Part shown: positions 19,098 to 56,076 of the stretch, one piece after another
Layout: every line of letters begins with the position of its first letter
How positions within the stretch are numbered: the stretch's first letter is position 1
NCBI GenBank assembly: GCA_964565955.1
Contig: CAZMHC010000005.1
Coordinates: forward strand, 11,560-75,559
DNA from: an uncultured Terracidiphilus sp.
Lineage (GTDB): Bacteria > Acidobacteriota > Terriglobia > Terriglobales > Acidobacteriaceae
Length of the DNA stretch: 64,000 bases
Direction of reading: 5' to 3'
The notes under the pieces: generated by a model
The model's input: only the letters and a program-made list of their open reading frames with translations
Database searches by the model: none
What the model was told of the DNA's origin: nothing
Program-made: the position numbers and the translations under genes

Positions 19098-19418
19098 GTG
19101 GCAGCGATCACTCAAGCGAAATGGAGAATCGGCGATGCGGAACACGGCATTCGTCACGATGGGGCGAAGGAGAGATGCATCTACCCCAATTTGAAATTGA
19201 GCATCTATACCGCGGGCATACGCCAGAATCAGTTAGCCAAGCAGCTGGGTATAGATGAGGGCTATCTGAGCAGGATACTCAACGGAGTTCGCGTACCTGG
19301 AGAGCAGATACAAGTTCAGATAGCGAACGCTTTGGGATGCGATGCGGAATGGCTGTTCAAACACACCACCGTCAAAGCTGTAGGACGCAAGTTTATGGAA
19401 GACGCAAAGATCGGTTAA
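19098..19418 (+). CDS. XRE-family helix-turn-helix transcriptional regulator
   Basis: The HTH reads IRQNQLAKQLGIDEGYLSRILNGVRVPG. GC content is visibly lower than in its neighbours. GTG start; the exact start is uncertain. Confidence 0.75.
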   Translation: MAAITQAKWRIGDAEHGIRHDGAKERCIYPNLKLSIYTAGIRQNQLAKQLGIDEGYLSRILNGVRVPGEQIQVQIANALGCDAEWLFKHTTVKAVGRKFMEDAKIG

Positions 19419-19551
19419 GAGACGTTTTCCTCAGTGAACGCTTGAATTTTTTCAACGATGGATTTGCGCTGTTGCTTTGGAGCTGCGATATTCGCTCCTA
19501 AACTTCCCCCGACCCTTTTGGACAGATCGACGCAAGACTGAAGTTTTTGCA

Positions 19552-19583
19552 CTCGAATGTGAGTGACATAGGCGAAGCCCGCT
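19552..19583 (+). repeat. Leader-region repeat, copy 1 (CTCGAATGTGAGTGACATAGGCGAAGCCCGCT)
   Basis: This 32-mer matches 19829-19860 with 2 mismatches. It contains the GCGAAGC mini-hairpin core. Confidence 0.8.
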
Positions 19584-19828
19584 CCGATTCGATTTTCCGA
19601 TCGGCGCGATGCCCAAATCGGAGCAATTTCAATCCGACTTCGCATACGGAGCGGAATGTCGCCGGGTTAGCTGTACGCAGGGATGAACCCGGCATCAAAA
19701 GGAATTGCTATCGGTCTTCCGTTACTCATGGATGAACGGTTGCGTTTTCTCCGAACTGTCGGCGCAGCCGGAATCGGCTCATGCACACCCCCCAAGCCGC
19801 ATGACAGGTTAACCGAAAATGGACAGCG

Positions 19829-19860
19829 CTCGAATGTGAGTGACAGGGGCGAAGCCCGCT
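19829..19860 (+). repeat. Leader-region repeat, copy 2 (CTCGAATGTGAGTGACAGGGGCGAAGCCCGCT), 141 nt upstream of the NusG-paralog start
   Basis: See copy 1. Its 17-mer GACAGGGGCGAAGCCCG recurs exactly at 31842-31858. Confidence 0.8.
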
Positions 19861-20000
19861 TCAAACCTGACAGTGAAATGGGGATGGGACGGATTCATTT
19901 GTCGATGCCGCGGCCAGCGAGCTGCAAGCTCCCTCGCCGACCGTCAACCGTCCATATGGACAAAGCAAGGCCGAATTGTCAGCGCGTGTATGGAGGCGAA

Positions 20001-20612
20001 ATGGGCGCACACAGCCTTAACTCGAGTTTTCAGACCGGAAACAAGCAGGTTCCGGATGGTTTCAATCCGGCGTGGTATGCGGTGCAGACCGCCTACCGCT
20101 GCGAGCAGCGCGCGGCTACGAGTCTGACCGCGAAAGGGATTGCGACCTATCTTCCGCTGCTGCGGGAGGTTCACCAGTGGAAGGATCGCCGCAAGGTCGT
20201 GGAAGTGCCGGCCTTCAGCGGCTACCTGTTCGTTCAATACGAGCCCAGTTTGCGCAACCGTGTAAAGGTGTTGGAAACGAGCGGCATAGTTCGTCTGCTG
20301 GGGGGGAATCATGAGCCGAGCCCGGTCCCCGAAGTCGAGATCGAAGCGGTTCGGCGCACTCTGGACAGCAAGGCGCCGTGCGTCCGCTGCGACGCGCTTA
20401 CGCCGGGGACCGCGGTACGGGTCAAGTCCGGTCCGCTGGCCGGCGTTCAAGGGCGACTGGCGCGAATCAAGAACAGTTTCCGGCTGATCGTCACCATCTC
20501 GGTTTTTTCTCAAGCCATCTCGGCCGAGCTTGCCATGAACGACGTGGAAGCGGTCCACGATCGTTCCTCGCTTCAACATTCGGTTTGGGAGCAATCCGCT
20601 TTTGCGAGCTAA
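20001..20612 (+). CDS. Specialised NusG paralog (UpxY/LoaP/RfaH-like transcription antiterminator)
   Basis: ATG 20001 is preceded by GGAGG. The NGN domain reads WYAVQTAYRCEQRAATSL...PAFSGYLFV. The KOW motif reads GTAVRVKSGPLAGVQGRL. It is the first gene of the glycan locus. Confidence 0.85.
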   Translation: MGAHSLNSSFQTGNKQVPDGFNPAWYAVQTAYRCEQRAATSLTAKGIATYLPLLREVHQWKDRRKVVEVPAFSGYLFVQYEPSLRNRVKVLETSGIVRLLGGNHEPSPVPEVEIEAVRRTLDSKAPCVRCDALTPGTAVRVKSGPLAGVQGRLARIKNSFRLIVTISVFSQAISAELAMNDVEAVHDRSSLQHSVWEQSAFAS

Positions 20613-20712: not shown

Positions 20713-22047
20713 ATGCTGAAATCGAAAGCGCCTCGAGTAGCAATTCTAGGAGTGGCCGTCGACAACCTGACGATGGACGAAGTTCTGAACGCCGTCGAGG
20801 AGAAGATCGCGGAGGGCGGCTTCCATCAGATAGCAACGGCCAACGCGGACTTCCTCATCAAATCGATTCACGACGAGGAACTGTACGAAACCCTGACCCG
20901 CTGCGACCTGGTTCTGGCCGACGGAATGCCGCTTGTATGGGCATCGCGGCTGTTGGGAACGGGTCTGAAGGAGCGCGTCGCGGGAGCCGATTTGGTGCCT
21001 CAACTGGCAAGACTGTCTGCCCGGCGGGGTTACCGAATCTTTCTTCTGGGGGCGGATGAGGAGAGTTCCGCGGGCACGGCGGCGTGGATGGAGAGGAACT
21101 ATCCCGGCGTTCGCATTGCCGGCCGCTATTGCCCAAGGCATTCGCCTTTGGAGGAGATGGATCACGAGGAGATACTGTCGAGGATCGAGGAGGCTCGGCC
21201 GGACATACTTCTGGTGGCCTTTGGAAACCCCAAGCAGGAAAAATGGCTGACCATGCATCGGCAAAGGCTGGAGGTTCCCGTGTGCATCGGAGTCGGCGGC
21301 TCGTTCGACTTTTTGAGCGGGAAGACCTCGCGCGCGCCGAGCTGGATGCAGCATAGCGGGATGGAATGGCTGCATCGGACGATGCAAGATCCATCGCGGT
21401 TGGCGAAGCGCTATTTGAGCAACGCCGTGGGTCTTTTGCGCTATCTTCCGGTGCAGCTTGCGGCCATGGCCATGCAGGGGAAACCGCGTCAAGGGGCGCG
21501 GATTACGCGGGAGAGGATGGGCGCGACGACCGTTCTGAGCATAGCGGGAGATTTCACCGGGTCGTTGTTGCCGCGGTTCGAATCCGACGTTCGCAGCGCG
21601 GTGCTTTCCGGCTCTCACGTGGTGCTCGACATGAGCCAAACGGCATACATCGGAGCGGACGCGATCGCCTCTCTGATTTACGCGATGAATGTCACTCGCA
21701 GTTGGAAGCGGGAACTTTGGCTGGCGGGGCTGGATCGGTTTCTGGCTCTGGTGGTGGGCGCATCGCGGCTGCGGCTCTTCTTTCGCATGGCGCCGAAGGT
21801 TTCGGAGGCGTTGCGTCGCATCCAGCCGGAGTCGATGCCGGTTCCTCGGTTCGGCGAAGACTGGGCGTATTGCCGCATAGGCGGGCAGATGGTGCCGATT
21901 CACGTCCATGAAGTGCCGGATGTGTACCGTCAGGTAAGGCAAATGCTGCGTCGGGAGTTTGCGGTCGAGACGATTTCGGTCTTGTCGTCAAGCGGTCTGG
22001 ACAGGGACAAATTGATTCACGATTTGATTCCAGCCGATGCCAGATAA
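20713..22047 (+). CDS. WecB/TagA/CpsF-family (GT26) glycosyltransferase fused to a C-terminal STAS domain
   Basis: The N-terminal 250 aa carry ILGVAVDNLTMDEVL, ATANADFL, LADGMPLVWASRLLG, FGNPKQEKW and GVGGSFDFLSG. The C-terminal roughly 110 aa (TVLSIAGDFTG...VVLDMSQTAYIGADAIASLI...LAGL) have an anti-sigma-antagonist/STAS-like pattern. Confidence 0.85.
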   Translation: MLKSKAPRVAILGVAVDNLTMDEVLNAVEEKIAEGGFHQIATANADFLIKSIHDEELYETLTRCDLVLADGMPLVWASRLLGTGLKERVAGADLVPQLARLSARRGYRIFLLGADEESSAGTAAWMERNYPGVRIAGRYCPRHSPLEEMDHEEILSRIEEARPDILLVAFGNPKQEKWLTMHRQRLEVPVCIGVGGSFDFLSGKTSRAPSWMQHSGMEWLHRTMQDPSRLAKRYLSNAVGLLRYLPVQLAAMAMQGKPRQGARITRERMGATTVLSIAGDFTGSLLPRFESDVRSAVLSGSHVVLDMSQTAYIGADAIASLIYAMNVTRSWKRELWLAGLDRFLALVVGASRLRLFFRMAPKVSEALRRIQPESMPVPRFGEDWAYCRIGGQMVPIHVHEVPDVYRQVRQMLRREFAVETISVLSSSGLDRDKLIHDLIPADAR

Positions 22048-22146
22048 GTTGGACGGCGGCGCGGGGATGCCCTGGGATGGAGTTTCCCGCGCCGGCTTCC
22101 ATGCAACAGCGGTTCGGCGCCATCGAGGGGAACGGAGTCGCGATTC

Positions 22147-23340
22147 ATGCTTCCGCACCAATTGTTCGGTCTGTTCGGGTTGGTTCTGACGCTGGCGACG
22201 CTGCCGCTGGCGGTTGAATTGCTGGTTCTGACGGCGGCGGCTCTGTTGCCGGCGGCGCGATCGGGTTCGAAAGATCGAGCCGCCGGAGAAGAGGCGTTTC
22301 CGCTCACGGTTCTGGTTCCGGCTCACAATGAAGAGGCTCTGATCGGGCGCTGCGTTCGCGGCTTGACGGAGTCGGCGGGTTGCGGCGCGGAGGTGCTGGT
22401 GGTGGCGCACAACTGCACCGACGGGACGGCGGCGGAAGCGGAGGCCGCGGGAGCGCGGGTGCTGAAGCTGGACGATTTGGATCGGAAGGGCAAGGGGTGC
22501 GCGCTGCGTCATGGGTTTGCGGCGGCGCTAGCCGGGCCTTCGATGGCAGTGCTTGTGGTGGATGCGGATTCCGTGGTTTCCCCCGGCTTGATAGCGGCGG
22601 CGCGGGAGAGATTTCAGCGCGGGGCGCAGGCGCTGCAATGCCGTTATGAGGTGAACAATCCGCTGGGGAACCAGCGCACGGAACTGATGGCGCTTGCGTT
22701 TCAGGGGTTCAACGCGATCCGTCCACGCGGCCGCGAGCGACTTGGCCTCTCGGCGGGAATTTTGGGCAATGGCTTCGGGCTTCACCGGGAAGCGTTGACG
22801 CGGGTTCCATACGGAGCCAATTCGGTTGTCGAGGATCTGGAATATCACCTGGCTCTGGTTCGCGCCGGGATCCGCGTCGAGTTTGTCGATACGGAGGCGG
22901 TTCGCGGCGAGATGCCGGTTTCGGATCGCGGCGCGCGCACGCAGCGCGCTCGCTGGGAAGGCGGGCGTCAGCGCATGATGAGGCATTGGGCCCCGAAGCT
23001 GATGGGCGATGTGCTGCGCGGACGAGCGAGGCTGATCGAGCCGCTTCTCGATCTGCTGTCGGCGCCGATGGCCACAGAGGCAATTCTGTTGCTGGTTGCG
23101 GCCTGTCTGCCCGTTCCGTGGCTCAGGCTGTACGTTCTGGCAGTGTTACTGGTTCTGATCCTACACGTAACCGCCGCAGGTGCCAGCGGTTCCGGTTTTT
23201 GGCGAACGATGAGGGTTATGGCCGCCGTTCCGGGCTATATTGTATGGAAGATATGGATTCTGCCGGAGACATGGCGCGCTTCCCGCAAGGATTCCGCATG
23301 GGTGCGGACGGAGCGCGATTCGCCGGCGGACGCTCAGTGA
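22147..23340 (+). CDS. Membrane-embedded family-2 glycosyltransferase, synthase-like (D, DxD, ED, QxxRW)
   Basis: An N-terminal TM precedes VLVPAHNEE, VVDADS, VEDLEY and QRARW. Three or four TM segments follow at the C-terminus. Confidence 0.85.
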   Translation: MLPHQLFGLFGLVLTLATLPLAVELLVLTAAALLPAARSGSKDRAAGEEAFPLTVLVPAHNEEALIGRCVRGLTESAGCGAEVLVVAHNCTDGTAAEAEAAGARVLKLDDLDRKGKGCALRHGFAAALAGPSMAVLVVDADSVVSPGLIAAARERFQRGAQALQCRYEVNNPLGNQRTELMALAFQGFNAIRPRGRERLGLSAGILGNGFGLHREALTRVPYGANSVVEDLEYHLALVRAGIRVEFVDTEAVRGEMPVSDRGARTQRARWEGGRQRMMRHWAPKLMGDVLRGRARLIEPLLDLLSAPMATEAILLLVAACLPVPWLRLYVLAVLLVLILHVTAAGASGSGFWRTMRVMAAVPGYIVWKIWILPETWRASRKDSAWVRTERDSPADAQ

Positions 23341-23421
23341 AGCGCGCATTCGATCCTTTCGCAGTCAAAGCGTCATGCGTTTCCGAAGCCGCGGGTCGCG
23401 CAAGCGCTGAAGGAGCATTCA

Positions 23422-24477
23422 GTGAATTCATCGAGTCGAGGTTGGAGGCCGGTCGTTTGCGGGATTGTCATTCTTGCGATCGGCATGGTTTGCGCGCCGG
23501 GCGCGGGAGCGAAGCCGCCGGATAGCGCGCCGGTGGGCAGCGACATTGCGCAGACAACCCAGGCGACGGGGGCATCGGTCGCGGGGAACCAGCAAGATCC
23601 GAAGCTGAAGTTGAGCCCCATCGAGGCCTTGCGCAGGTTCGAGCCGTCGGCGGACGAGGAATACACTCTGGGCGCGGGCGACGAGATTTCCATTCAGTTC
23701 CCTGGACGCTTGGAGTTGGCCAGCAAAGACGTGATCGGTCCGGACGGACGCATAACGCTTCCTCTTGCGGGTCCGATCAAGGTCGCCGGCCTTACCCGCG
23801 AAGCGGCCGGACAAAAGATAGCCGAGGCGCTATCGGTTTACTACACCAACCTGACGGCGACGGTGCAGGTGGAGAAATACGGATCGAATCACATTGTTCT
23901 TCTGGGGAGCGTGAAGAATCCAGGAGTGATGGATTTCGACCAGACGCCGACCCTGCTGGAGGTGCTTTCGAAGGGGGGCATCGAAACCCGTCCCGACGGC
24001 AACCTTCCCGATCAGTGCGTGATCTATCGCGGAGAGCAAGTGTTCTGGGTTGATCTGGAGGATTTGCTGGCGAGCGGAAGCCCCCTGGCGGATCTTCGGC
24101 TGCGCCGGGACGACGTGATCTTCGTTCCCGCATTGTCGACCAGGAACGTGACGGTGATGGGACAAGTGCAGCATCCGGGCGAGATCGCGCTGCGGCACGA
24201 CTCGACTCTTTCCTCGGTTCTGGGCGAGGCGGGCGGCATCAGCGATGCGGCGGGCAACAACCCGGAGCTTCAGATCGTGCATCGTTCCAAGGGGGGCACG
24301 ACTCAATATGTCCGCTTCAAGGACCTTCTGAAGCCGACGGGAGGACTTGAAGTCTCGCTGAACCCCGGCGATATCGTTTACGTGCCCAAGAGCGGACTTT
24401 CCAAAGTCGGCTTTGTCATGCAGCAACTGGCGCCGTTCTTGACGATGGGCAGTTTCGCGGCGCTTGCCGTTCATTGA
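23422..24477 (+). CDS. Polysaccharide export protein (Wza-like; Poly_export plus SLBB domains)
   Basis: GTG start with an AGGAG RBS, then a signal peptide. Motifs are YTLGAGDEISI, GPDGRITLPLAGPIKVAGLT and the SLBB-like VTVMGQVQHPG. Confidence 0.85.
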   Translation: MNSSSRGWRPVVCGIVILAIGMVCAPGAGAKPPDSAPVGSDIAQTTQATGASVAGNQQDPKLKLSPIEALRRFEPSADEEYTLGAGDEISIQFPGRLELASKDVIGPDGRITLPLAGPIKVAGLTREAAGQKIAEALSVYYTNLTATVQVEKYGSNHIVLLGSVKNPGVMDFDQTPTLLEVLSKGGIETRPDGNLPDQCVIYRGEQVFWVDLEDLLASGSPLADLRLRRDDVIFVPALSTRNVTVMGQVQHPGEIALRHDSTLSSVLGEAGGISDAAGNNPELQIVHRSKGGTTQYVRFKDLLKPTGGLEVSLNPGDIVYVPKSGLSKVGFVMQQLAPFLTMGSFAALAVH

Positions 24478-24493
24478 CTTTGAAAGGTTGGAT

Positions 24494-26644
24494 ATGCTCG
24501 ATTCAGCGCTTGACAATGCGCCTCCCGGAAGTTACAAGAACTCGCCGTTGCCGGCGCGCCGGGCGGGGAGTTCCTCCGAAGCGCCAGGTCCGACCGTCAA
24601 CCCGATTGGCAGTCTGCGCCGCCACTGGCCGGTGGCGGCGGCGTTGTTTCTCTTCATTCTGGGCGGTGGGGCATTCGTGCTCTGGAAGAAGGAAAAACCT
24701 GTTTACGAGTCGCAGAGCGTGGTCTACGTTTCGCCGAAGTTTCCCAAGATGCTGGCCAACGACCCGGAGGTGGAGCTTCCGTACGACTCATACGTTCAAG
24801 ACCAGATACAGACGGTGACGCGGCACGATATCATCGGGGACGCCATCTCGAAGCTGCCGTATTCGGTGCGTCACCGGAGCGGACCGGCTCTTCCCTACGA
24901 GATTGAATTGCTGCAGAAGCGACTGCAAGTGAAGCGGGTCGGTTCGACCTACGAGATGACCATCGGCTTGGACAGCCCCACGCCGGATGGTTTGGCGGAG
25001 GTCGTCAACACGGTCACCGACACTTACGTTGGGAGAACGAAGAACGAGGAGTTTTACGGTCTCGACGAGCGCCTGAGCACGCTCCGTCAGGAAAAGGACC
25101 GGCTGCAGAAGGAGATGGACGATCGCCTGGGCGAACAGGCTCATCTGATGGAACGGCTCGGCGTAGCCACGATTACGTCCACGGAGGGCGCGTCGAATCC
25201 CTACGACTCGACCTTGCAGCGGCTGCGTGAGCAGTTGAGCGCGGCGCATATGCAGAGCGAAGCGGCCGAAGCGCAGTTGGCGACGGCGCTGAAAGGGGGA
25301 GGGGAGAGCGTTCAAGACGCGGCCGCGGATCAGGCGATCGCATCGGATCCCGGATTGTCCGCGATGCGGAGCAGTCTGAACACGCGCCGGGCGGCGCTGA
25401 TCCAAGAGATGAGCGGCCTGCGTCCGGATCATCCGATCTATCAGAAAGACAAGACGGAGTTGGCATCGATCGACGGGCAGATGAACGACCTGAGAAGCAA
25501 GTCCGGCGAACAGCTTGCGGACAAGCTGCGACAGGACGTGGCGCGCACGCGCATGATCGAGATTCAACTGACGCAGGAACTCGCAGAGAAGACGAACACG
25601 GCCACGTCGGCGGCGCCCAAGATTCAGAGAGCCGCGGAACTTGGGCCGGAGATCGACAGCCTGCAGAAGGCATACGGGGCGGTCAGCGACCGCATCCGCG
25701 ATTTGGAGTTGGAGAGCAGTTCGCCGGGGTCCATCCACGTATCCTCGAAGGCGCTGACCCCGTTCAATCCGGTACAGAGCAAACTGAAGCTGTATATTCT
25801 CGCCCTTGTATTGATAGGCTTGGGGTGCGCCACGGCGGTTCCGATCGGGATCGATCTTTTGGACGGCAGAATCTTCTCCGCCCCCGATGTCGAACGGGTG
25901 GTAGGCTTTCATCCCCTCGGTGTGCTTCTCGACAACCGCGAGTTTCGTCGAGAAACGGCGGGCGAGTATTATTTCCGCCTGGCGGCGAGCATCGACTTCG
26001 CCGTGCGCAACGCGGGAGCGCGAACCTTTCTGTTTACCTCTCCCGCGCATGGCTGCGGGACGAGCACCATCGTGCGAGAGTTGAGCGTTAAACTTCGCAG
26101 CCTCAATCTGAGAGCGCGGACGATCAACGCATCTCGCTCCGAAGGGATCGATTTTGCCGGCGAGGGCGTTCCCTGGCGGTCTCAACTGCTACTGGACAAA
26201 CGGAGCAAGACGGAGGAGATTCAGCCCGCGACGCTGGCTCCGATCGCACCCGCACACGAGCAGGCGGAATACCGTCGGGGACGGGAAGCCCCGGCTCACA
26301 GTGGAGCGTCGCGCGGCCTGCATCGCGCGAACGAGCAGTGCGATGTGATTTTGATCGACGCAAACCCGCTGCCGATCTCGGCGCAAACCGAATACCTGGC
26401 GCGGGTTTCCGATGTAACCGTTCTGGTGGTGAAGTCCAGCGCGACGACCAAGCACGAACTGGAGAGATCGGCGCGGCTCCTGGAGCGATTGGACGTTGCC
26501 GGTGTGGCCGTGGTCCTGAACAAGATGAATCTCGACCGGGCGGACCGCGACCTCAAGAGAGAACTGCAAAGGTACGAACAATCGTTTCGTCAGCGTTGCG
26601 AGGAATCCAAAAAGGACTCGAGGCGCGACAAGGTTCGCGCCTGA
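24494..26644 (+). CDS. Wzc/GumC-like polysaccharide co-polymerase with a degenerate P-loop domain
   Basis: Wzz-like N-terminus with a TM, a long coiled-coil periplasmic region, a second TM, and a C-terminal CpsD/MinD-like fold. Walker A reads SPAHGCGTST, so the lysine is missing. Walker B reads DVILIDANP. There is no Tyr-rich tail. Confidence 0.8.
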   Translation: MLDSALDNAPPGSYKNSPLPARRAGSSSEAPGPTVNPIGSLRRHWPVAAALFLFILGGGAFVLWKKEKPVYESQSVVYVSPKFPKMLANDPEVELPYDSYVQDQIQTVTRHDIIGDAISKLPYSVRHRSGPALPYEIELLQKRLQVKRVGSTYEMTIGLDSPTPDGLAEVVNTVTDTYVGRTKNEEFYGLDERLSTLRQEKDRLQKEMDDRLGEQAHLMERLGVATITSTEGASNPYDSTLQRLREQLSAAHMQSEAAEAQLATALKGGGESVQDAAADQAIASDPGLSAMRSSLNTRRAALIQEMSGLRPDHPIYQKDKTELASIDGQMNDLRSKSGEQLADKLRQDVARTRMIEIQLTQELAEKTNTATSAAPKIQRAAELGPEIDSLQKAYGAVSDRIRDLELESSSPGSIHVSSKALTPFNPVQSKLKLYILALVLIGLGCATAVPIGIDLLDGRIFSAPDVERVVGFHPLGVLLDNREFRRETAGEYYFRLAASIDFAVRNAGARTFLFTSPAHGCGTSTIVRELSVKLRSLNLRARTINASRSEGIDFAGEGVPWRSQLLLDKRSKTEEIQPATLAPIAPAHEQAEYRRGREAPAHSGASRGLHRANEQCDVILIDANPLPISAQTEYLARVSDVTVLVVKSSATTKHELERSARLLERLDVAGVAVVLNKMNLDRADRDLKRELQRYEQSFRQRCEESKKDSRRDKVRA

Positions 26645-26728
26645 CGGCGGGCCGGCGCAATAACCTGGACCGGCGCGAGCGGCCTCGAATGGAGGACAGT
26701 CCCACGACAGTACGCCCGTGATCGATCT

Positions 26729-28123
26729 ATGCGCCCACTGGAAATTCTTCTCGTATGCCTGATTGTCGGTGCTGCCCTTTGTTCGTTCTTTGTCCGCTGG
26801 GCGCGAACTGGCCGGGCAATCCTGGCCGGCGCCCTGATCGCAGGGGTCGCGCACGGGATTCTGGAAGGCGCGCACTGGCAGATGATCCCAGCGTACGCGG
26901 CCGCCGCAATCCTCGGCCTGGTTTTCCTGAAGCCCGGCGGAAGCCATTCACGTCTTCGGAAAATCGCGGCATCGGCGGCGCTGGCGTTCGCGGCGGCAAG
27001 CGTTTCGTTCTCGATTCTGCTGCCGATATTTTGCCTGCCCAAGCCAACCGGGCCTTATCCGGTCGGCACATCGATCCTGTACCTCAAAGACGCGACACGC
27101 ATCGAGGATGCGGCGCCTGGCGGAAATTCCGCGAGAGAACTGGCGGTCCAGCTTTGGTATCCCGCCCAACCTTCGCACAACCGACTCGCCCGTTACCGCG
27201 AACCGAGAGAGACCGACCTGCTCAGTTCCTACCAGAGCGCGGTCGCCACCAATTCACGGATGGACGCTCCGGTGGCGCGCGTGGGCGGACCGTTTCCGAT
27301 CGTTCTTTTCAACCATGCGTGGCGCGGCAGACGGACCAACGACACCTTCCTGACCGAGGAACTGGCCAGCCGCGGCTATGTCGTAGCCAGCATCGATCAC
27401 ACCTACAACGCCAGACTGGTTGCATTTCCGGATGGCCGAGTCGCGCATGGAATTGCCGCCAACGACGTGGACGATCCGGAGATCGGCACCCCGGAGAGCG
27501 TGAGAGCGGACTGGAACAAAGAGTTGAGGAAATGGGTGGCGGACCAGCGATTCGTTCTCGATCGCTTGGAAGAGATGAACCGCACGGCCGGTTCGCGGTG
27601 GTTCGGAAGCCTGAATATCGCCGCGGTCGGCGCGATGGGACACTCGTTCGGCGGAGCGGCGGCGACGGCGGTATGCGCCGCGGACACGCGGGTTCGCGCG
27701 TCGTTGAACATGGATGGATGGTTCTTCGACGCCATTCGCGCGCGAGGACCGAGGCAGCCGTTGCTTTTCATGGACGCCTACACCGATCGAATTGGGGAAA
27801 CTCCCGGTCCAAGCGCAAAAGTGGAAACGACTCTCGACGAGACCGACTTCGACGATGTGGAGGGATCGCTGCGCAGATTCGGCGGTTATCTATTGTCGGT
27901 GAAGGGCGCCTCGCACGAGGACTTCACGGATCAGCCTCTCATCTCGCCGCTGCGCGCGCTGTCGCGTCGCGGAACGATTCCGGTCCGGCGAATTCAGGAG
28001 ATTGTGCGGACTTATGTGGACGCATTCTTCGACAAGACGCTTCGAGGCGGAAACCCCGAGATTCTTCGAGCGCCCACCAGCCCCTATGCCGAGATCCGGC
28101 TCGACGCTTGGCCGCCAAACTGA
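26729..28123 (+). CDS. Membrane-anchored alpha/beta hydrolase (PAF-acetylhydrolase-like lipase/esterase)
   Basis: Three or four N-terminal TM helices are followed by a hydrolase fold with the nucleophile elbow GHSFGG. The overall pattern is PAF-AH_p_II-like. Confidence 0.65.
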   Translation: MRPLEILLVCLIVGAALCSFFVRWARTGRAILAGALIAGVAHGILEGAHWQMIPAYAAAAILGLVFLKPGGSHSRLRKIAASAALAFAAASVSFSILLPIFCLPKPTGPYPVGTSILYLKDATRIEDAAPGGNSARELAVQLWYPAQPSHNRLARYREPRETDLLSSYQSAVATNSRMDAPVARVGGPFPIVLFNHAWRGRRTNDTFLTEELASRGYVVASIDHTYNARLVAFPDGRVAHGIAANDVDDPEIGTPESVRADWNKELRKWVADQRFVLDRLEEMNRTAGSRWFGSLNIAAVGAMGHSFGGAAATAVCAADTRVRASLNMDGWFFDAIRARGPRQPLLFMDAYTDRIGETPGPSAKVETTLDETDFDDVEGSLRRFGGYLLSVKGASHEDFTDQPLISPLRALSRRGTIPVRRIQEIVRTYVDAFFDKTLRGGNPEILRAPTSPYAEIRLDAWPPN

Positions 28124-29170
28124 ATGAATGGCCGCAAGGACAACCTTGCCAACCGGCGACAAGCGATTCTTCAACGCCTGACCGAATTCTCCAAACCCTC
28201 GTGGGTATGGGAGGACCAGATGCCCGCATCGTTCGATCGAATCATCCAGTGCGCCCCCGACGTTTTTGCAAACAATCTGAACAGGCTGCCTCACGAATTC
28301 GCGCACAGTCTGGCCGGCAACAAGCTTTTCGAGCTTTCGATGCTCGTCGATCTGGCGGAAAAGGTGGCAACGCGCGCGAACCCGCATCTGCCCGGCGGAG
28401 ACGTGTATTTCAATAAAGGGCTGATCGAGGCGGGCGAAAAGCCGTTGCGGCCCGATATGCCGCGCACCGCCGCCGTCGATCTGATTAGGCGCATCGATAG
28501 CGAAGAGGCATGGATTATTTTGAAGCACGTGGAACGCGAGGCTGGATATCGCGATGTGCTGGAGAATTGCATCCGCGACATTCTCGAATTGTCGAAGAGC
28601 CAACTGCTTCGCAAGATCAAATGGTTCGAGGCGATTCTCTTCATTACGTCGCCCAATCGCGTGACGGAATATCACCTCGACCGCGAGGTATCCTGGATTC
28701 TCCAGCTTCAGGGCGACAAGGAGATTCACGTCTTCGACCGCGCCGACAAGGACATCGTTCCCGACGATGAGCTTGAAACGTACTGGACCGCGGACAATCG
28801 AGCGGCGCGCTACAAGCCGGAGTACGAATCCAGAGCGTTCGTATATCAAATGCGGCCTGGAAGCGGGGTGCACATTCCCATCAATTCTCCTCATTGGCTG
28901 CGCAACAAGAACAATATTTCAGTAACCTTGAACGTCAATTTCCAGTTTCACGACAGATATTGGGCAAACCTCTATCGAGCGAACTACTATCTTCGCCGCG
29001 CGGGCATCGAGCCGTATCCGCCCGGCATCCACCCAGTGTCGGACGGTTTCAAGAGCGCGGCATTCACGGCGATGCAGCGAGTGAAGCAGGCAGTGAAGGG
29101 GCGGCCGCACATCCCCGCCGAGGCGCGCGAGCAAAACAGGAGAATTGCCGCAATGACCGGGGCGCTCTGA
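28124..29170 (+). CDS. JmjC/cupin-like Fe(II)/2-oxoglutarate oxygenase (paralog A)
   Basis: It starts immediately after the previous stop. The putative facial triad is YHLD (HxD) plus SPHW (His), in the context ITSPNRVTEYHLD...VHIPINSPHWLRN. It is a paralog of 32095-33009. Confidence 0.6.
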   Translation: MNGRKDNLANRRQAILQRLTEFSKPSWVWEDQMPASFDRIIQCAPDVFANNLNRLPHEFAHSLAGNKLFELSMLVDLAEKVATRANPHLPGGDVYFNKGLIEAGEKPLRPDMPRTAAVDLIRRIDSEEAWIILKHVEREAGYRDVLENCIRDILELSKSQLLRKIKWFEAILFITSPNRVTEYHLDREVSWILQLQGDKEIHVFDRADKDIVPDDELETYWTADNRAARYKPEYESRAFVYQMRPGSGVHIPINSPHWLRNKNNISVTLNVNFQFHDRYWANLYRANYYLRRAGIEPYPPGIHPVSDGFKSAAFTAMQRVKQAVKGRPHIPAEAREQNRRIAAMTGAL

Positions 29171-29214
29171 GCGCCGAGTGCGCGGCGAACGTCGGCATTG
29201 ACGGGGCTCCAACC

Positions 29215-30012
29215 CTAAGCGGGTGGATGAAGCGCCGCTGAAATTGGAATGGGACTATCCTCCGAATGGGAAAACAGTTCCTCCAGGGTTGCCGAAATCG
29301 TTTGCAGCAGTGGGGGATGGGAATAAAAATGCCCGCCGGGAAATATCCGCATTTCAAAGCGGCGGCTGGTCTGGCGCTTCCAGGCAAGCAACTCGTTCCA
29401 GGCGACGCTTTTGTCCTTGACTCCGGCGAAGACCGCGATCGGGCAGTCGAGCGGTTCATCTTGGCGGAAACGATAACTCTCCACCACCGCGATGTCGGCC
29501 CTCAGAATCGGCAGGAAGAGTTCCATAAGTTCCGGGTCTCGCAGCAACTCCTGGGGAACTCCGTCGTAGCGTCGGATCAACTCTTCCACGAATTCGCTAT
29601 CGGGAAGCGATTGCAGAGGATTGGTGTCGCCGGCTATGTCCGGCGCGCGACGGCCGGAAAGAAAGAGGCAGACAGGCATGGAATCTCCGCTGCGATGGAC
29701 TCTGCGCGCCCACTCGAAGGCCAGCAACGCCCCCATGCTGTGCCCGAAGACGGCGTAAGGGATGTCCAGCCAGGGGCGGAGTTCCCGGTCCAACGCGTCA
29801 ACCAGCGTTTCCATATCGGAGCAAGGCGGCTCGGAGAAACGCCTCTCCCGTCCGGGCAGCAGGACCGAACATACCTGTACAAAAGCGGGCAGCGAGTCGT
29901 TCCAGGAATGAAATGCGGCGGCGCCTCCTCCGGCATGAGGGAGACAGAACAGGCGTACGCGCGGATGCCCGCCGGCCGGGCGGCACTGAAGCCAGAGAGC
30001 GCTCCTATCCAA
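29215..30012 (-). CDS. Type II thioesterase (NRPS/PKS editing TE)
   Basis: 265 aa. Motifs are LFCLPHAGGGA, GHSMGA and a C-terminal PGGHF. It is the only minus-strand gene inside the locus. Confidence 0.85.
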   Translation of the reverse strand: MDRSALWLQCRPAGGHPRVRLFCLPHAGGGAAAFHSWNDSLPAFVQVCSVLLPGRERRFSEPPCSDMETLVDALDRELRPWLDIPYAVFGHSMGALLAFEWARRVHRSGDSMPVCLFLSGRRAPDIAGDTNPLQSLPDSEFVEELIRRYDGVPQELLRDPELMELFLPILRADIAVVESYRFRQDEPLDCPIAVFAGVKDKSVAWNELLAWKRQTSRRFEMRIFPGGHFYSHPPLLQTISATLEELFSHSEDSPIPISAALHPPA

Positions 30013-30187
30013 GACGGCATTCCTCCGGATTCGATTCTACGCGATTCATGCGCGCGATGAAGTTTTCGGACTGGTAAGTCGGGTGCGGAGCGGGCGCGGC
30101 GAGAGCTACCGCATTCGAGCCGGAGATTTCCGGCGGAAGTCAGTCTTCATACTCACCAAAATACTTTGAAATCGCGAGGTCACGACA

Positions 30188-31708
30188 ATGGCGACATCCG
30201 AATTGTGGCAAAGAGTTTCCGCATCCAAAGCTTCTTCCCATGAGTGGGCGGTAAGAGCGGCCGCGGGCTCGTCGCGCAGGCCGGGAGGAATGACCGCGCT
30301 ATGGATGGTCCTGGACGGGATCACGATTCTGGTATCCGCAATTCTGGTTACAATCCACGAGCAGCATACGGGACCGATCGCCGGCGCGAGGAACCTTTGG
30401 CAAGCATACCTCATGCACGGCCGTTCGCTGGGACTGCTGTTGGCGGCGCTGTGCGGATTCACCGTCGCGCTGATCGTGACCAGCCGACAACTGTATCTGT
30501 ATACGCCCGCGCGCCTGGGCAGTTTTCTGCATGAGCAGAGGCTTAGCGCGCAGGCCTGCTTCACCTCCGGACTCTTGCTGACGGGGGCGCTCTATATGGT
30601 TCACGCCGAGGAGATTCCGCGCGGAGTCGTGTTGATCACGATAGGTCTGGTCGCCATTGGGCTTAGCCTGCGCCGGGCAGGTTTCCGATTTCTGCTCTAC
30701 AGTCGCTTCGATCGCGGGATCGGCACACGCAATGTGCTCATCGTCGGCACCGGACCCGAGGCGTATGCGCTGCGTCATCATCTGGAGAGCATCCGTCATC
30801 TCGGCTACAATTTCAAGGGTTTTATCGACTTTCCATCGGAAGGCTCCCGCTCCGCGGCAACCTCCAGCGATGTGGTCGGCACTCTGGAAACTCTCTTCCA
30901 AGATGCCCGCAAGAAGTTCGTGGATGAGATATTCTTCACCGCTCCCGGCGAACAAAGCGGCGTTGTCAAGGACGTGCTGGAGAAAGCCCGCGCCCACGGC
31001 GTGGACCTGCGCGTGGTTCCCGATATGTACGACGGGTTGGCATGGAACAGCCCGGTCGAGTACATCGGCCAGTTTCCCACCATTCCGCTGCATTGCGGCC
31101 ACGTGCCCGAATTCGCTTTGATGCTTAAACGAGTCTTCGACATTGCGCTCTCCAGTCTGATTCTGATTGCCATTTCGCCGCTGTTGCTGGCCATCGCCGT
31201 CGCCATCAAGCTGGATTCGCCGGGGCCGGCCTTTTACCTCTCCAAGCGCATCGGCAAGAAGGGCCGTGTCTTCCGCTGCATCAAGTTCCGCACCATGGTT
31301 CCCGACGCCGAAAAGCGCCGCGAAAGTCTGTTGCACAAGAACGAGCGCGACGGCGTTCTGTTCAAGATCGCCGACGATCCCCGCGTCACCAGACTGGGCC
31401 GTGTGCTGCGCAAGTATTCGTTGGACGAACTGCCCCAGTTTTTCAACGTGCTCAACGGCGACATGAGCATCGTGGGGCCGCGTCCGCCCATAGCCAGCGA
31501 GGTGCGCGAGTACAATCTCAGCCATCTGCGCCGTCTGGATGTAACTCCGGGCATTACCGGTCTGTGGCAGGTGCAGTCGCGCCAGGACCCCTCGTTCGAT
31601 AGCTATATCTCACTGGATGTGACTTATATAGAAAACTGGAGCTTGTGGCTGGATTTCAAGATCGTGATGCGCACTGTAGGCGTAGTTCTTGCCGGAACCG
31701 GTTCCTAA
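30188..31708 (+). CDS. Polyprenyl-phosphate glycosyl-1-phosphate transferase (WbaP/EpsB-type priming enzyme, Bac_transf)
   Basis: 506 aa with 4-5 N-terminal TM segments. The C-terminal catalytic domain reads KRVFDIALSSLILI, PAFYLSKRIGKKGRVF, KFRTM, DELPQFFNVLNGDMSIVGPRP. Confidence 0.9.
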   Translation: MATSELWQRVSASKASSHEWAVRAAAGSSRRPGGMTALWMVLDGITILVSAILVTIHEQHTGPIAGARNLWQAYLMHGRSLGLLLAALCGFTVALIVTSRQLYLYTPARLGSFLHEQRLSAQACFTSGLLLTGALYMVHAEEIPRGVVLITIGLVAIGLSLRRAGFRFLLYSRFDRGIGTRNVLIVGTGPEAYALRHHLESIRHLGYNFKGFIDFPSEGSRSAATSSDVVGTLETLFQDARKKFVDEIFFTAPGEQSGVVKDVLEKARAHGVDLRVVPDMYDGLAWNSPVEYIGQFPTIPLHCGHVPEFALMLKRVFDIALSSLILIAISPLLLAIAVAIKLDSPGPAFYLSKRIGKKGRVFRCIKFRTMVPDAEKRRESLLHKNERDGVLFKIADDPRVTRLGRVLRKYSLDELPQFFNVLNGDMSIVGPRPPIASEVREYNLSHLRRLDVTPGITGLWQVQSRQDPSFDSYISLDVTYIENWSLWLDFKIVMRTVGVVLAGTGS

Positions 31709-31717
31709 GCCAACCTC

Positions 31718-31737: not shown

Positions 31738-31841
31738 AGCGGGGTCCGACGAGACGCGAGCGTCAATTTCTTGCAACGATCCCCGGCATCTTGCATCGAA
31801 ACTGGCAATGAAGCGGTTGTTCCGCACCGACAGGTGGGAAC

Positions 31842-31858
31842 GACAGGGGCGAAGCCCG
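31842..31858 (+). repeat. Third copy of the leader motif core (GACAGGGGCGAAGCCCG), 237 nt upstream of the 32095 operon
   Basis: Exact 17-mer shared with 19842-19858. An isolated 17-mer match in 64 kb of GC-rich DNA is only borderline significant on its own. Confidence 0.5.
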
Positions 31859-31890
31859 GCCGCGCGATTTTCGGCGCCAATTCATCGTCT

Positions 31891-32030
31891 TAGCACTACA
31901 GTTGTATATCTGGATTTCGGCTGAGATTGGCAAAGGCCCGGGCCTAAAGGCCCAACATTTTGGTATCAATTTCAGAGGCCTGAAGGCCTCTGCTCCCTCC
32001 GATCTCGCAATCTACAACTGTAGTCTTAGG
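31891..32030. mobile_element. MITE-like element of about 140 bp bounded by inverted repeats
   Basis: ACTACAGTTGTA (31895-31906) and TACAACTGTAGT (32013-32024) form a perfect 12-bp inverted repeat, extendable imperfectly to about 18 bp (CTTAGCACTACAGTTGTA / TACAACTGTAGTCTTAGG). Internal hairpins are GGCCCGGGCC and AGAGGCC-TGA-AGGCCTCT. No ORF is present. Confidence 0.4.
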
Positions 32031-32094
32031 GCCTGTTAACACTGCCTCAGGCGGTGGCGACGGCGGCCAATTTTTCCCGTGCGAAGGAGTTCTC

Positions 32095-33009
32095 ATGGCA
32101 ACGGCATTCCATCCTGTTACAGAGCCGGCCGTCTTCCCCAATGCGATCGAGGCCGGAAAAATCTTTGCGGCCAACTTCGACCACCACCCGTTCGAGTTCC
32201 GCCACAGGCTCGATACGATGGAAATCTTTCAGATGCCGGCGCTGCTGGACCTGGCTGAACGCTGTATGCGGAAGCGTGAGCACAAGAGCCACTACGAATC
32301 CGGCGAGCCGATTGCGAACGGCTACTTCGGCAGCAAGCCCGCGGATGCGACTTTGGTGCAGGCGCTGGAGAGGATTGGGGAAGGGAGCAACTGGATCATA
32401 CTCAAGCGCATACACGAAGAGCCGGAGTATCGGGAAGCCCTGAAGTCATTCATCTCCGAACTGTCGGAGCTGACATCCACGGATTTGCGCCGCCGCTATC
32501 GCGATCCTATTCTGACGATATTCATCACCTCGCCGAACCGAGTTACGCCGTATCATCTGGATGGCGAAGCCAATTTTCTGGCGCAGGTGCGGGGCAGCAA
32601 GTCGGTGTTTCTCTACAATGCGCACGATCCGCGGATTCTAACTCCAGAGGAGATGGAGCGGTATTGGACGGGACACCTGTTGGCTCCCCGATGGCACGAC
32701 GAATTGTCGGAGGGGCAGTGGCGTTACGAGGTATCTCCGGGCGTGGGCGTCTTCAATCCCGCGACTTTTCCGCACTGGGTGAAAAACGCGAACAACGTTT
32801 CGGTTTCCGTCAGCATCAACTTCAAACGGGCGCGAAACGACGCGATCGGGGCTTACCGAGCGAATTACTATGCGCGAAGACTTGGCTTGCGGCCCACTGT
32901 GCCGGGGCGTTCTCCGGTCCTCGATCGCTTGAAGAATCTTACCTTCGGCAAGCTGTACGAGGGAGCGCACACGGCGCGGAGCGCGGTTCGGGCGCGCTAC
33001 GGGATATAG
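32095..33009 (+). CDS. JmjC/cupin-like Fe(II)/2-oxoglutarate oxygenase (paralog B)
   Basis: The context ITSPNRVTPYHLDGEANFLAQVRGSK...ATFPHWVKNANNVSVSVSINFK has the same HxD...H arrangement and flanking motifs as 28124-29170. Confidence 0.6.
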   Translation: MATAFHPVTEPAVFPNAIEAGKIFAANFDHHPFEFRHRLDTMEIFQMPALLDLAERCMRKREHKSHYESGEPIANGYFGSKPADATLVQALERIGEGSNWIILKRIHEEPEYREALKSFISELSELTSTDLRRRYRDPILTIFITSPNRVTPYHLDGEANFLAQVRGSKSVFLYNAHDPRILTPEEMERYWTGHLLAPRWHDELSEGQWRYEVSPGVGVFNPATFPHWVKNANNVSVSVSINFKRARNDAIGAYRANYYARRLGLRPTVPGRSPVLDRLKNLTFGKLYEGAHTARSAVRARYGI

Positions 33010-33094
33010 GGCGCCATGGCGAAGGCTCATTGTCGGGAAGAATTGCACTCACCAGCCGAGCGAACGTTCGCCGGCTGCATTCAGGAGCGAGAGA

Positions 33095-33715
33095 TTGGTA
33101 AGTCCGATTGCCGCAATCGTACGCCGCATAGCCTTTCGATGGGGCCGCTGCAAAGGTCTGTATCTGCGCATTTGCAAACCGGGCGCGCGGGAATATACGC
33201 GATTCATGAAACTGCATGGCGGCTTTCATGCGATAGGGGAGCATTGCAGCATTCTTCCCAGCACGAACTTTACCGATCCCGCCTATGTGAAGCTGGGGAA
33301 TAACGTACATTTCTCGAACTGCACCCTGGTCGGTCACGACGGCGCGGTGACGATGTTGAATCGGGCCTACGACGCAAGACTGGATTCGGTGGGCAAAATC
33401 GATATCCGCGACAATGTGTTTATCGGCTACGGAGCGATCGTGCTTCCCGGCGTGACGATCGGACCGAACGCCATCGTTGCCGCCGGCGCGGTCGTCAACC
33501 GGGATGTCGCTTCGGGAGACATTGTCGGTGGAGTTCCGGCGAAGCCCATCGGAAAGGTAGACGATCTTGTCGCCAGGCTCCAGGCAAGAACGGACGGCCT
33601 GCCGTGGAGCGACCTGATTCGGAAGCGCGGGATCGATGTCGATGCGGAGATGGAGGAGGAACTGGTTCGGCGCAGGGTCGAGCATTTCTACGGGCAACCG
33701 CGGGACCGGGACTGA
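33095..33715 (+). CDS. Hexapeptide-repeat (LbH) acyl/acetyltransferase
   Basis: TTG start. Left-handed beta-helix repeats read IGNNVHFSNCTLVGHDG, IRDNVFIGYGAIVLPGVTIGPNAIVAAGAVV and GGVPAKPIG. Confidence 0.8.
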   Translation: MVSPIAAIVRRIAFRWGRCKGLYLRICKPGAREYTRFMKLHGGFHAIGEHCSILPSTNFTDPAYVKLGNNVHFSNCTLVGHDGAVTMLNRAYDARLDSVGKIDIRDNVFIGYGAIVLPGVTIGPNAIVAAGAVVNRDVASGDIVGGVPAKPIGKVDDLVARLQARTDGLPWSDLIRKRGIDVDAEMEEELVRRRVEHFYGQPRDRD

Positions 33716-33863
33716 AGATTGCGGTCGACATTTAGTCCGCATCGGGGCGGCCGCGGTTGGAACCGCGAATTGGATGGCAACGTTGCGATGTCCGAGTTCC
33801 ATACAAGGAGAATTGCCGCCGAATATGCTAGGATGTATTCGCTTTCACGACGAAAGAATCCCG

Positions 33864-34967
33864 ATGAGAATTGTATTCTTGCTCCCCCAGGAAGGATCGC
33901 GGCCGGCGGGCGGATTCAAGGTTGTGTACGAATACGCCAACCGATTGGCCAAACGCAACCATACAGTCCAGGTGGTGCATATAGCGCAGTTGTTCCACCG
34001 CGGCGCGCGCCTGAGTTTGAGAGACAGATTGCGCGGGTTGAGATATGTGCCATTCGCCCTGAGCGGCAACTGGAGACCGGATCGCTGGTTCAAATTCGAC
34101 CCCAGGGTGAAGCTATCGTGGATGCCGACCATGTCCCGTCTCTTTCTTCCGCGGGCGGATGGGTACATAGCCACATGGTGGACGACGGCGGACCGTCTTG
34201 CGTCTCTGCCCGACTTGCCGGGGAAAAAGCTTTACCTGATTCAACATCTGGAAACCTGGCTCGGCTCGGTCGACGAGGTGATGGCTACCTGGAAGGCGCC
34301 CCTTGAGAAGATCGTGATCGCGCGCTGGCTTGAAGACGTGGCTCACGGGATGGGCGAGAGCTGTCACTACATACCGAACGGGCTGGACTTCACCAAGTTC
34401 GGTTGCGACCTTCCGGCGGAAAGCAGAGATCCAATGCGGCTGGCGATGCTATTCAGCCACGGATTGCCGTGGAAAGGTTCCTTCGATGGACTTTCGGCGC
34501 TTGTGGCTCTGAAAGACAAGCGCCCCGCTCTCGAAGCCGAATTCTTCGGCATCGATGAGCGTCCGCGAGAGCTGCCTTCCTGGATCGTCTACCACAAGAC
34601 GCCCACCCAGGAAGAGCTGCGCCGCATCTACAACCGCGCGTCGATCTTCCTGGCTCCCAGCCACAGCGAGGGATGGGGCCTTCCTCCGTGCGAAGCGATG
34701 ATGTGCGGCGCGGCCGTGGTTGCAACCGATATCGGCGGGCACCGCGAGTTCTGCACCGACGGGGAGACCGCGTTGCTGGTTCCCGCCAAGAATCCCGGAG
34801 CCATTGCCGAGGCGGTCGACAGGCTCATCGAAGATCCGGCGTTGCGCCTGCGGGTGGCGCGGAACGGTCACCGAAATGTCCAAAGATTCACTTGGGAGGT
34901 CGCCTGCGACGCATTCGAACGTGTGTTGCTGACGCCTCTTGCGGACTCCGCAATGTCCCACATCTGA
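33864..34967 (+). CDS. Glycosyltransferase family 4 (GT-B, GT1 superfamily)
   Basis: ATG 33864 (MRIVFLLPQEGSRPAGGFKVV). The C-terminal signature is PSHSEGWGLPPCEAMMCGAAVVATDIGGHREF. The track ORF begins earlier, at 33636. Confidence 0.85.
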   Translation: MRIVFLLPQEGSRPAGGFKVVYEYANRLAKRNHTVQVVHIAQLFHRGARLSLRDRLRGLRYVPFALSGNWRPDRWFKFDPRVKLSWMPTMSRLFLPRADGYIATWWTTADRLASLPDLPGKKLYLIQHLETWLGSVDEVMATWKAPLEKIVIARWLEDVAHGMGESCHYIPNGLDFTKFGCDLPAESRDPMRLAMLFSHGLPWKGSFDGLSALVALKDKRPALEAEFFGIDERPRELPSWIVYHKTPTQEELRRIYNRASIFLAPSHSEGWGLPPCEAMMCGAAVVATDIGGHREFCTDGETALLVPAKNPGAIAEAVDRLIEDPALRLRVARNGHRNVQRFTWEVACDAFERVLLTPLADSAMSHI

Positions 34968-35062
34968 AACGGGCGAAGGACTCACAATTCACGAATTACT
35001 TTCGTTTGCATCCCTGACTCCTCGCCTCGATCACAATAAACATACCAATACCCGAGGGCACT

Positions 35063-36490: not shown

Positions 36491-36554
36491 TATTGCGTTA
36501 TAAACAGTGAGTTCCAATTTTCAGCGATATCTCCATCGAAATCAGGAAATTGCA

Positions 36555-49170: not shown

Positions 49171-49185
49171 GGAGAAAGGCGCCCG

Positions 49186-50139: not shown

Positions 50140-50145
50140 GTTCCC

Positions 50146-51435: not shown

Positions 51436-51452
51436 AGACAGGTCGGTCGCAC

Positions 51453-52796: not shown

Positions 52797-52803
52797 GAGG
52801 ACT

Positions 52804-53808: not shown

Positions 53809-53832
53809 AGCGCATACTTCCGAAAGACGACA

Positions 53833-54447: not shown

Positions 54448-54493
54448 GGAAGTTACCGCAAAGGAATGAATCGTTCCCAACCGAAGAGGCAGC

Positions 54494-56047: not shown

Positions 56048-56076
56048 AGCGTTGACGATAGTATATTCAGAAGACC

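Follow-up and report, generated by a model that had tools for sequence, protein, structure and literature searches.

The locus and its repeated element

The stretch of DNA described here (the window, 64,000 nucleotides (nt) of contig CAZMHC010000005.1, positions 11,560 to 75,559, from an uncultured Terracidiphilus sp. of the phylum Acidobacteriota, assembly GCA_964565955.1) carries a polysaccharide locus headed by a gene for a specialized NusG paralog, and within that locus an element of approximately 38 nt that occurs three times. Two copies, a1 and a2, sit between a gene for an XRE-family helix-turn-helix (HTH) regulator and the paralog; the third, copy b, lies ahead of a second operon, the one containing nonribosomal peptide synthetase–polyketide synthase (NRPS-PKS) genes (Table 1). 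It is this element, and what it might do for the paralog, that concerns us.

Table 1. Features of the locus, in window coordinates
Feature	Position	Strand	Basis and details
XRE-family HTH regulator gene	19098..19418	+	Pfam HTH_3, 6.4e-10
Element copy a1	19549..19586	+	Repeat comparison, genome search; R1 = 47.5 bits
Parts of a1			Hairpin P1 19550-19565 (CACTCG/AATG/TGAGTG); GGCGAAGCC 19571-19579; predicted pause C19580, then G19581
Element copy a2	19826..19863	+	R1 = 49.8 bits
Parts of a2			Hairpin P1 19827-19842; GGCGAAGCC 19848-19856; predicted pause C19857, then G19858
UpxY-family NusG paralog, 203 amino acids (aa)	20001..20612	+	Pfam NusG, NCBIfam NF033644, alignment with E. coli NusG
First polysaccharide operon	20713..31708	+	Pfam scan, list of open reading frames (ORFs)
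Element copy b	31817..31863	+	R1 = 39 bits; fold -22.5 kcal/mol
Parts of b			Long hairpin 31817-31843; GGCGAAGCC 31848-31856; predicted pause C31857, then G31858
Miniature inverted-repeat transposable element (MITE)	31891..32031	not assigned	Between copy b and the first gene of the second operon; outside the element
Second operon: cupin (Cupin_8), then NRPS-PKS and glycosyltransferase genes	32095..57703	+	ORFs, Pfam

The paralog heads a set of polysaccharide genes on its own strand, in an order that is the same in 13 orthologous loci. The gene that follows begins 100 nt past the paralog's stop codon, with no small ORF between, and encodes a WecG-STAS glycosyltransferase of 444 aa; genes for a GT2 glycosyltransferase, Wza, a Wzc-like protein, a hydrolase, a cupin, an unknown protein and a priming sugar transferase complete the first operon. 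A spacer of 386 nt, which holds copy b, separates this operon from the cupin-led second operon, the presumed target of that copy.

That the first protein is a NusG paralog, as the original prediction had it, is borne out by its NGN domain (Pfam PF02357, 1.2e-20, residues 24-117) and by the alignment of residues 24-183 with E. coli NusG across both NGN and KOW domains. It passes the NCBIfam model NF033644, antiterm_UpxY (123.8 bits; cut-off 100), and falls below the cut-off in those for RfaH (70.6 against 144.5), LoaP (49.6 against 125) and NusG itself (46.8 against 135.7). A housekeeping NusG and, among the matches listed, two further paralogs are encoded elsewhere in the genome. One of them, the third NusG paralog (C10:42549-43034, minus strand), lies immediately ahead of a Wzc-Wza pair with its own orientation; the 500 nt that precede it showed no GGCGAAGCC site.

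Copies a1 and a2 agree at 32 of 35 positions (19549-19583 and 19826-19860) and, because they are offset by 277 nt, fall in different reading frames. The exact 17-mer they share, GACAGGGGCGAAGCCCG, occurs again at 31842-31858 in copy b, and the likeness of b to the a copies extends beyond it to 21 of 24 bases (31835-31858; family D7). On these points—a leader element repeated in different frames, and a third exact 17-mer—the original prediction was right, and it was right, too, to call the 17-mer borderline when judged within the window: with up to three mismatches there are three matches where 0.59 are expected, and 2 of 100 shuffled sequences also reach three. Across the whole assembly (3.73 Mb in 262 contigs), the 17-mer with up to two mismatches is confined to the three locus sites and one unrelated coding match. 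All three genomic sites lie on the sense strand, in non-coding DNA, at a single locus, and the element is therefore not a dispersed repeat. Genome-wide scatter, which the prediction had named as the finding that would overturn it, is absent: with three copies at one locus here, and between one and three per genome in 107 genomes, repeats of the repetitive extragenic palindromic (REP) or MITE kind are rejected. Rfam 15 contains no family that reaches its gathering threshold anywhere in the window, and nothing relevant in either leader at E-values up to 10.

Anatomy of the element

Counting the pyrimidine that precedes the last G as position -1, the block from -11 to +1 reads GGGCGAAGCCYG and contains the heptamer GCGAAGC. 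In all aligned copies there is zero variation in GGCGAAGCC and the Y-G that follows it. The block carries G-10/Y-1/G+1, the consensus signature of an elemental pause, to which the ops element also conforms (PMC7819879), and it is from this signature only that the pause position has been assigned. As single-stranded DNA, GGCGAAGCC is computed to form a hairpin with a GAA loop, at -3.3 kcal/mol for the 13-mer versus -0.9 for ops.

Upstream of this block is a second hairpin, P1, found in all site classes, whose 3' end falls at -16 to -14 and whose 3' arm overlaps a conserved GGGA. The two arms of P1 change in step: CACTC pairs with GAGTG in some copies, and GGTCC with GGACC, GGCCC with GGGCC, GGGTTCCA with TGGGACTC, or TTATTTCCAC with GTGGGAGTGA in others. 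When the 5' arms were exchanged among 76 instances, the stem score fell from 13.66 for native pairs to 11.94 (standard deviation 0.24), and none of 200 swaps reached the native value; the test is inflated by relatedness among the sequences, although distinct arm pairs are visible by eye nonetheless. The computed fold of copy a2, whether as single-stranded DNA or as RNA, has both hairpins. The GAA mini-hairpin that the original prediction placed at the core is upheld to the extent that GCGAAGC is invariant, but the functional unit is larger, some 38 nt, and comprises the upstream hairpin, the GCGAAGC core and the pause signature together.

Covariation stops at P1. No compensatory change was found for any stem around the core, RNAalifold detected no compensatory pairs in the first nine instances, and single-sequence folds are unremarkable (z-scores from -1.7 to +1.1). 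An outer stem, P2, around the GAA hairpin was tried in six registers and dropped: it shows one-sided G-C/G-U variation only and no compensatory change. A CAGG/CCTG pairing across the core was rejected as well, as Y-1 changes without a compensating change at A-13.

Further blocks are conserved nearby. The sequence TTTTGGACA lies approximately 33 nt 5' of P1 in copy a1, where the upstream context agrees with that of the orthologs. In the orthologous loci TTGGACA occurs approximately 30 nt 5' of the a copies (19523-19529 in the window), and (T)CACATCCAAT approximately 40 nt 5' of the b copies (the region of 31789-31798). These last two blocks could be parts of promoters, or an upstream-duplex part of the site.

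Distribution among genomes

For searches further afield, a covariance model of 38 nt was built from nine instances and refined on 40. It superseded a strict pattern search, which had yielded, among 60 relatives, one true homolog and three chance matches in a conserved coding gene of another family. The sets searched were 401 genomes of the genus and a phylum sample of 400 others (227 genera, the window's genome included). Looking for the motif in related genomes, as had been suggested with the original prediction, turned up 146 copies in 107 of the 401 genus genomes—peat-soil Acidobacteria—at one to three per genome, and next to none outside: a single genome of the 400 carries the element. This lone copy (L135, positions 1501-1538, in genome G710 of another genus of the same family) reads GGGGCTGACACGGGCGAAGCCCG, and the ATG of a NusG paralog (WFALQTRYRYEERIA...) follows approximately 25 nt after it.

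Orthologs of the window's paralog were taken at E-values of 1e-81 or below, there being nothing between 1e-45 and 1e-81 in the genus, and occur in 28 of the 401 genomes. The element is directly upstream of the paralog in 27 of the 27 orthologs with upstream DNA on the contig, and every a-type copy is followed by paralog and WecG gene. In 18 genomes a second copy follows 10-20 kb further downstream, in the same contig and orientation; where checked, in at least 12 species, it has the priming transferase (or orf264, the gene before that) on one side and cupinB on the other. The first three orthologous loci to be found each have the motif twice, on the sense strand, once upstream of the paralog and once after the priming transferase. 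Orthologs of cupinB in other species start 139-261 nt after copy b.

The paralog's start codon

In the window the paralog most likely starts at the ATG at 20001, judging from the GGAGG ahead of it; alternative in-frame starts are found at 19878 and 19884. In most species the site is fused to the start of the gene, with the GGGAG of P1 likely to serve as Shine-Dalgarno sequence. Of 19 distinct a-type copies, 18 have at -13 to -11 an ATG in the frame of the paralog (MGEAC...), four of 12 orthologs examined have no second in-frame ATG, and G018, the sole ortholog checked codon by codon, has no other ATG, GTG or TTG before the NGN domain. Orthologs start either inside the element, at this ATG, or approximately 55 nt after it; in the window the distance is 138 nt from a2. 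The window's genome is an outlier, the sole ortholog with two a copies, both without the ATG (they have ATA and AGG instead), with approximately 150 extra nt, and with its paralog start approximately 140 nt further downstream. Conservation of the element is not a matter of coding constraint, because the non-coding b copies and the sister class described below keep the block.

Transcription of the locus

Evidence of transcription comes from assembled metatranscriptome contigs. In four independent wetland runs contigs begin at 19076, 19079, 19086 and 19109, and reach into the WecG gene after crossing the XRE gene, copies a1 and a2 and the paralog. The a copies are thus internal to a transcript that begins before the XRE gene, and the clustered contig ends suggest that 19076-19109 is the transcription start of an XRE–leader–NusG paralog transcript. 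The long leader of approximately 580 nt in the original prediction needs amending in this light: the distance holds, at 582 nt from the XRE stop (19418) to the ATG at 20001, but the leader is not a promoter-proximal 5' untranslated region. An XRE homolog precedes 19 of 19 distinct a-type copies, ending approximately 125-390 nt before the element.

Contig depth drops 4-8-fold inside the paralog gene in two runs, which is suggestive only, contig depth being a poor measure of expression. Another RNA contig, from X4, covers 31535-31920, which takes in the tail of the priming-transferase gene as well as copy b. Terminator and promoter scans found no sense-strand sites. The MITE downstream of copy b is approximately 140 nt long, with terminal inverted repeats, and is present in at least 33 copies in the genome at 95-100% identity; metatranscriptome contigs link it to many unrelated flanks.

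A sister class, and further variants

Forty single-copy loci from other species (L095-L134) make up a sister class of sites. The base at -18 is C in 37 of 37 sister-class copies, and G in 19 of 19 a copies and 13 of 14 b copies. Downstream in 37 of the 40 loci is a small gene (MTVLKPRSRMISVRLSEEEY...), at 77-374 nt in 36 and approximately 1.5 kb in one, for a 90-aa protein with an N-terminus of ribbon-helix-helix (RHH) type and a coiled-coil tail; it precedes Wza and Wzc genes. RHH_1 and NikA match it only weakly, and among the Pfam and NCBIfam models none scores above its cut-off. A Wza-type exporter gene occurs within 6 kb in 35 of the 40. An RHH protein as the common reader of all sites was considered and rejected, since no homolog of the gene was found in the window's genome; the notion that every copy has a NusG gene beside it was discarded, too, being false for 38 of the 40 sister-class loci.

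Another variant consists of a hairpin ending in CTAAG, a spacer of 5-9 nt and then GGCGAAGCCATGC. In two species (L107 and L114) it lies approximately 150 nt upstream of a second type of NusG paralog, the type encoded on contig C13 of the window's genome. In that genome the variant occurs on the minus strand of C1, near 99815, ahead of a Wzc/Wza operon, and on the minus strand of C14, near 24739, ahead of a TetR-WzaLong operon. When the genome was screened for a hairpin followed by GGCGRAGCC, the top matches mostly resembled coding sequence or terminators of opposite-strand genes, and only C14:24739 was site-like; C1:99815, which had been met in the 17-mer search of the genome, is also site-like. 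The CTAAG variant hints at several paralog–site classes, as in Bacteroides.

One can go further and imagine that the hairpin and GGCGAAGCC make up a general, class-coded ‘elongation-factor address’ in this lineage, by which operons are allotted to different NusG paralogs much as promoters are to sigma factors. This is a tentative idea, and we think it on the doubtful side. It would bring together the three UpxY-type paralogs of the window's genome and its site classes, of which there are at least two, GGGAGTGA..GGGCGAAGCCYG at the present locus versus CTAAG..GGCGAAGCCATGC at the two Wza/Wzc operons; the widespread GGGAC class, in the leaders of RHH-Wza-Wzc operons, would then have a different paralog as its reader in trans, or none at all.

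A proposed pause-and-load site for the paralog

What, then, is the element for? Probably, we think, it is a composite site of the ops/opsX type in transcribed DNA, at which the UpxY-family paralog is loaded onto RNA polymerase. The motif is most likely the acidobacterial counterpart of the Bacteroides UpxY/opsX system, that is, a pause-and-load site for the cluster's own NusG-type factor. The original prediction had proposed a recruitment site for the paralog, and the proposal gains support from what the genomes contain: no scatter, 27 of 27 co-occurrences and an opsX-like architecture. Also in its favor are the second site in 18 genomes, the G at -18 common to the a and b copies, the covarying arms of P1, the unvarying block, the protein's score in the UpxY model, the RNA contigs over the a copies and the lone copy outside the genus, which again stands ahead of a NusG paralog.

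The reaction might run as follows. RNA polymerase would transcribe P1, which would act as a pause hairpin, and approximately 15 nt further on it would meet the invariant block GGGCGAAGCCYG. There the elemental-pause signature would halt it, exposing GCGAAGC on the non-template strand, where the sequence could fold into the GAA mini-hairpin. The paralog would read the paused complex by way of the non-template DNA and probably the adjacent upstream duplex as well, with its class-specific GGGAGTGA; it would then displace the housekeeping NusG, and the polymerase would stay resistant to termination through the polysaccharide genes. Copy b, 12 kb downstream, may reload the factor, or load it onto polymerases that start there, and so extend the effect over the 26-kb NRPS-PKS/glycosyltransferase operon.

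Several observations weigh against this scheme. Its chief weakness, if one protein is strictly to match one site, is the sister class: a NusG gene is absent within -11/+9 kb in 38 of its 40 loci, and its genomes lack this paralog, from which it follows that the core block does not need this particular protein. The co-occurrence of element and paralog falls within one syntenic locus and is partly inheritance rather than a series of independent events. Scanning the sense strand beyond the sites revealed no intrinsic terminator, and P1 ends farther from the predicted pause, at -16 to -14, than does the hairpin of Bacteroides class 1 sites (-12 to -9), albeit inside the span published for outliers. 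G-U pairs occur in P1, and C alternates with T opposite a G in the 3' flank of the core (72 of 76 pairable at 11:25); because both fit pairing at the level of RNA, they leave room for recognition in that form. What we infer from sequence, finally, is that the polymerase pauses here, that the non-template strand folds into a hairpin, that the paralog binds and that termination is prevented.

The last but one of these points bears on a different explanation, in which the element acts as nascent RNA, either as a LoaP-like hairpin bound by the KOW domain or as a factor-independent antitermination or pause RNA of the EAR/put type. P1 covaries and tolerates G-U pairs, the flanking C/T can pair as just described, the sister class operates in genomes with neither this paralog nor a NusG gene nearby, and the RNA is present in situ. 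Against this, the 12-nt block is invariant, without compensatory change; RNAalifold gives no compensatory pairs in the core, and the single-sequence folds (z-scores again -1.7 to +1.1) are not exceptional; the core of the block fits the consensus of the opsX non-template DNA hairpin, as does its position if the pause is at Y; and the paralog scores only 49.6 in the LoaP model, whose cut-off is 125. We consider an RNA element unlikely, though it is the alternative to be taken most seriously. An operator or promoter element in duplex DNA, read by the XRE regulator, by the RHH-like protein of the sister class or by an alternative sigma factor, we find a good deal harder to credit. The constant XRE neighbor of the a-type copies (19 of 19) would suit it, as would the RHH-like gene close behind 36 of 40 sister copies, with one more at approximately 1.5 kb, and GG-N10-GC is spaced like a sigma-54 -24/-12 promoter. 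The b copies, however, have no adjoining XRE gene, and an RHH homolog is missing from the window's genome; the element, which is asymmetric, occurs strictly in the sense orientation, and a covarying hairpin has no role in a duplex operator; the RNA contigs begin approximately 450 nt upstream and cross both a copies. The sigma-54 promoter was rejected in its own right, as GG and GC alone fit, the consensus is otherwise unmatched and conservation runs 10 nt past the supposed -12.

There is also the prosaic view that conservation of the a-type copies is nothing but the paralog's translation start—GGGAG as Shine-Dalgarno sequence, ATG, MGEAC...—and that the other copies are coincidental. The in-frame ATG in 18 of 19 copies invites it, and so do the four of 12 orthologs without a second in-frame ATG and G018, which has no other start before its NGN domain. 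Both a copies in the window are conserved without an ATG at that position, however, and the b copies and 37 sister-class copies, with 77-374 nt between them and the following gene, mostly lack one. The invariant block exists without coding, and the explanation is therefore largely refuted; we give it hardly any credence. The overlap is better read as an ops site that has become fused to a start codon, and in Bacteroides class-2 sites the start codon is at +9 (PMC11685472).

Significance

Specialized NusG paralogs decide whether long, costly and often horizontally acquired gene clusters—capsules, exopolysaccharides, polyketides—are transcribed to completion. To our knowledge, their recruitment sites are known experimentally only for RfaH, in part for LoaP and, since 2024, for Bacteroides UpxY; a literature search on NusG paralogs in Acidobacteria found nothing. 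The locus gives a sequence-defined candidate site for a factor of UpxY type in Acidobacteriota, a dominant and poorly tractable phylum of soils. Upward of 140 natural variants accompany it, as do two sub-classes and a proposed internal reloading site ahead of an NRPS-PKS cassette. The combination of GCGNAGC and a hairpin appears older as a design than the Bacteroides radiation. The site offers a handle for predicting which clusters each paralog controls, and a compact part that could aid the heterologous expression of long acidobacterial clusters.

Comparison with known systems

LoaP, of Firmicutes and Actinobacteria, is proposed to read a hairpin in the leader RNA through its KOW domain. Its gene, like that of the present paralog, adjoins a cluster for a polyketide or a polysaccharide, and its targeting depends on a small leader hairpin. 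The strongest conservation in our element, in contrast, is in an invariant, single-stranded block of ops type, and the protein falls well short of the LoaP model.

RfaH of E. coli is recruited by a 12-nt ops element, GGCGGTAGnnTG, with a non-template hairpin, GCGGTAGC. The ops 12-mer is not at the sites of the locus, which read GGGCGAAGCCYG; five exact copies occur in the genome, all of them outside the locus. Common to both systems, if the proposed reading holds, are a pause site with G-10/Y-1/G+1 that exposes a small GCG..AGC non-template hairpin, and its position in the leaders of long envelope-polysaccharide operons. The loop of the acidobacterial hairpin is a one-base GAA where ops has GGTA, and it lacks the flipped T; the whole element, upstream hairpin included, is approximately 38 nt. 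The window's paralog is encoded in cis, unlike RfaH, and fails the RfaH model; the sister class may have a factor that works in trans, in the manner of RfaH.

UpxY of Bacteroides fragilis was reportedly described by Chatzidaki-Livanis in 2009. Saba et al. (2024; PMC11685472) showed the mode of recruitment of the Bacteroides UpxY proteins with the help of native elongating transcript sequencing (NET-seq) and transcription in vitro. The opsX sites of these proteins, of approximately 40 bp, comprise a region encoding the pause hairpin and, from -11 to +1, the sequence 5'-YGCGNAGCR, which forms a hairpin in the non-template strand. Class 1 sites have the end of the pause hairpin at -12 to -9, class 2 sites at -14 and outliers at -12 or -16, and the start codon of the Y gene is at +41/+42, +9, +25 or +111 (PMC11685472).

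The acidobacterial locus departs from this pattern in several respects. It belongs to another phylum, and no invertible promoter was seen in it. In Bacteroides a gene of UpxZ type follows the Y gene, whereas none does here and the next gene is the WecG-STAS glycosyltransferase. Transcription takes in the XRE gene upstream, the locus has a second site 10-20 kb further in, and a sister class of sites occurs in operons that encode no paralog in cis. The flanks of the core are Y...R in Bacteroides but G...C here, around an invariant GCGAAGC, and the upstream hairpin ends at -16 to -14 rather than at the -12 to -9 of class 1. The correspondences are these: in both, a NusG paralog of the UpxY family is the first gene of a polysaccharide operon; the site, approximately 40 bp long, lies in the transcribed leader just before the start of the paralog gene or overlapping it; its upstream part has class-specific bases; and a hairpin-encoding region comes first, as in opsX class 1, ahead of a GCGNAGC core whose block would span -11 to +1 with the pause at Y.

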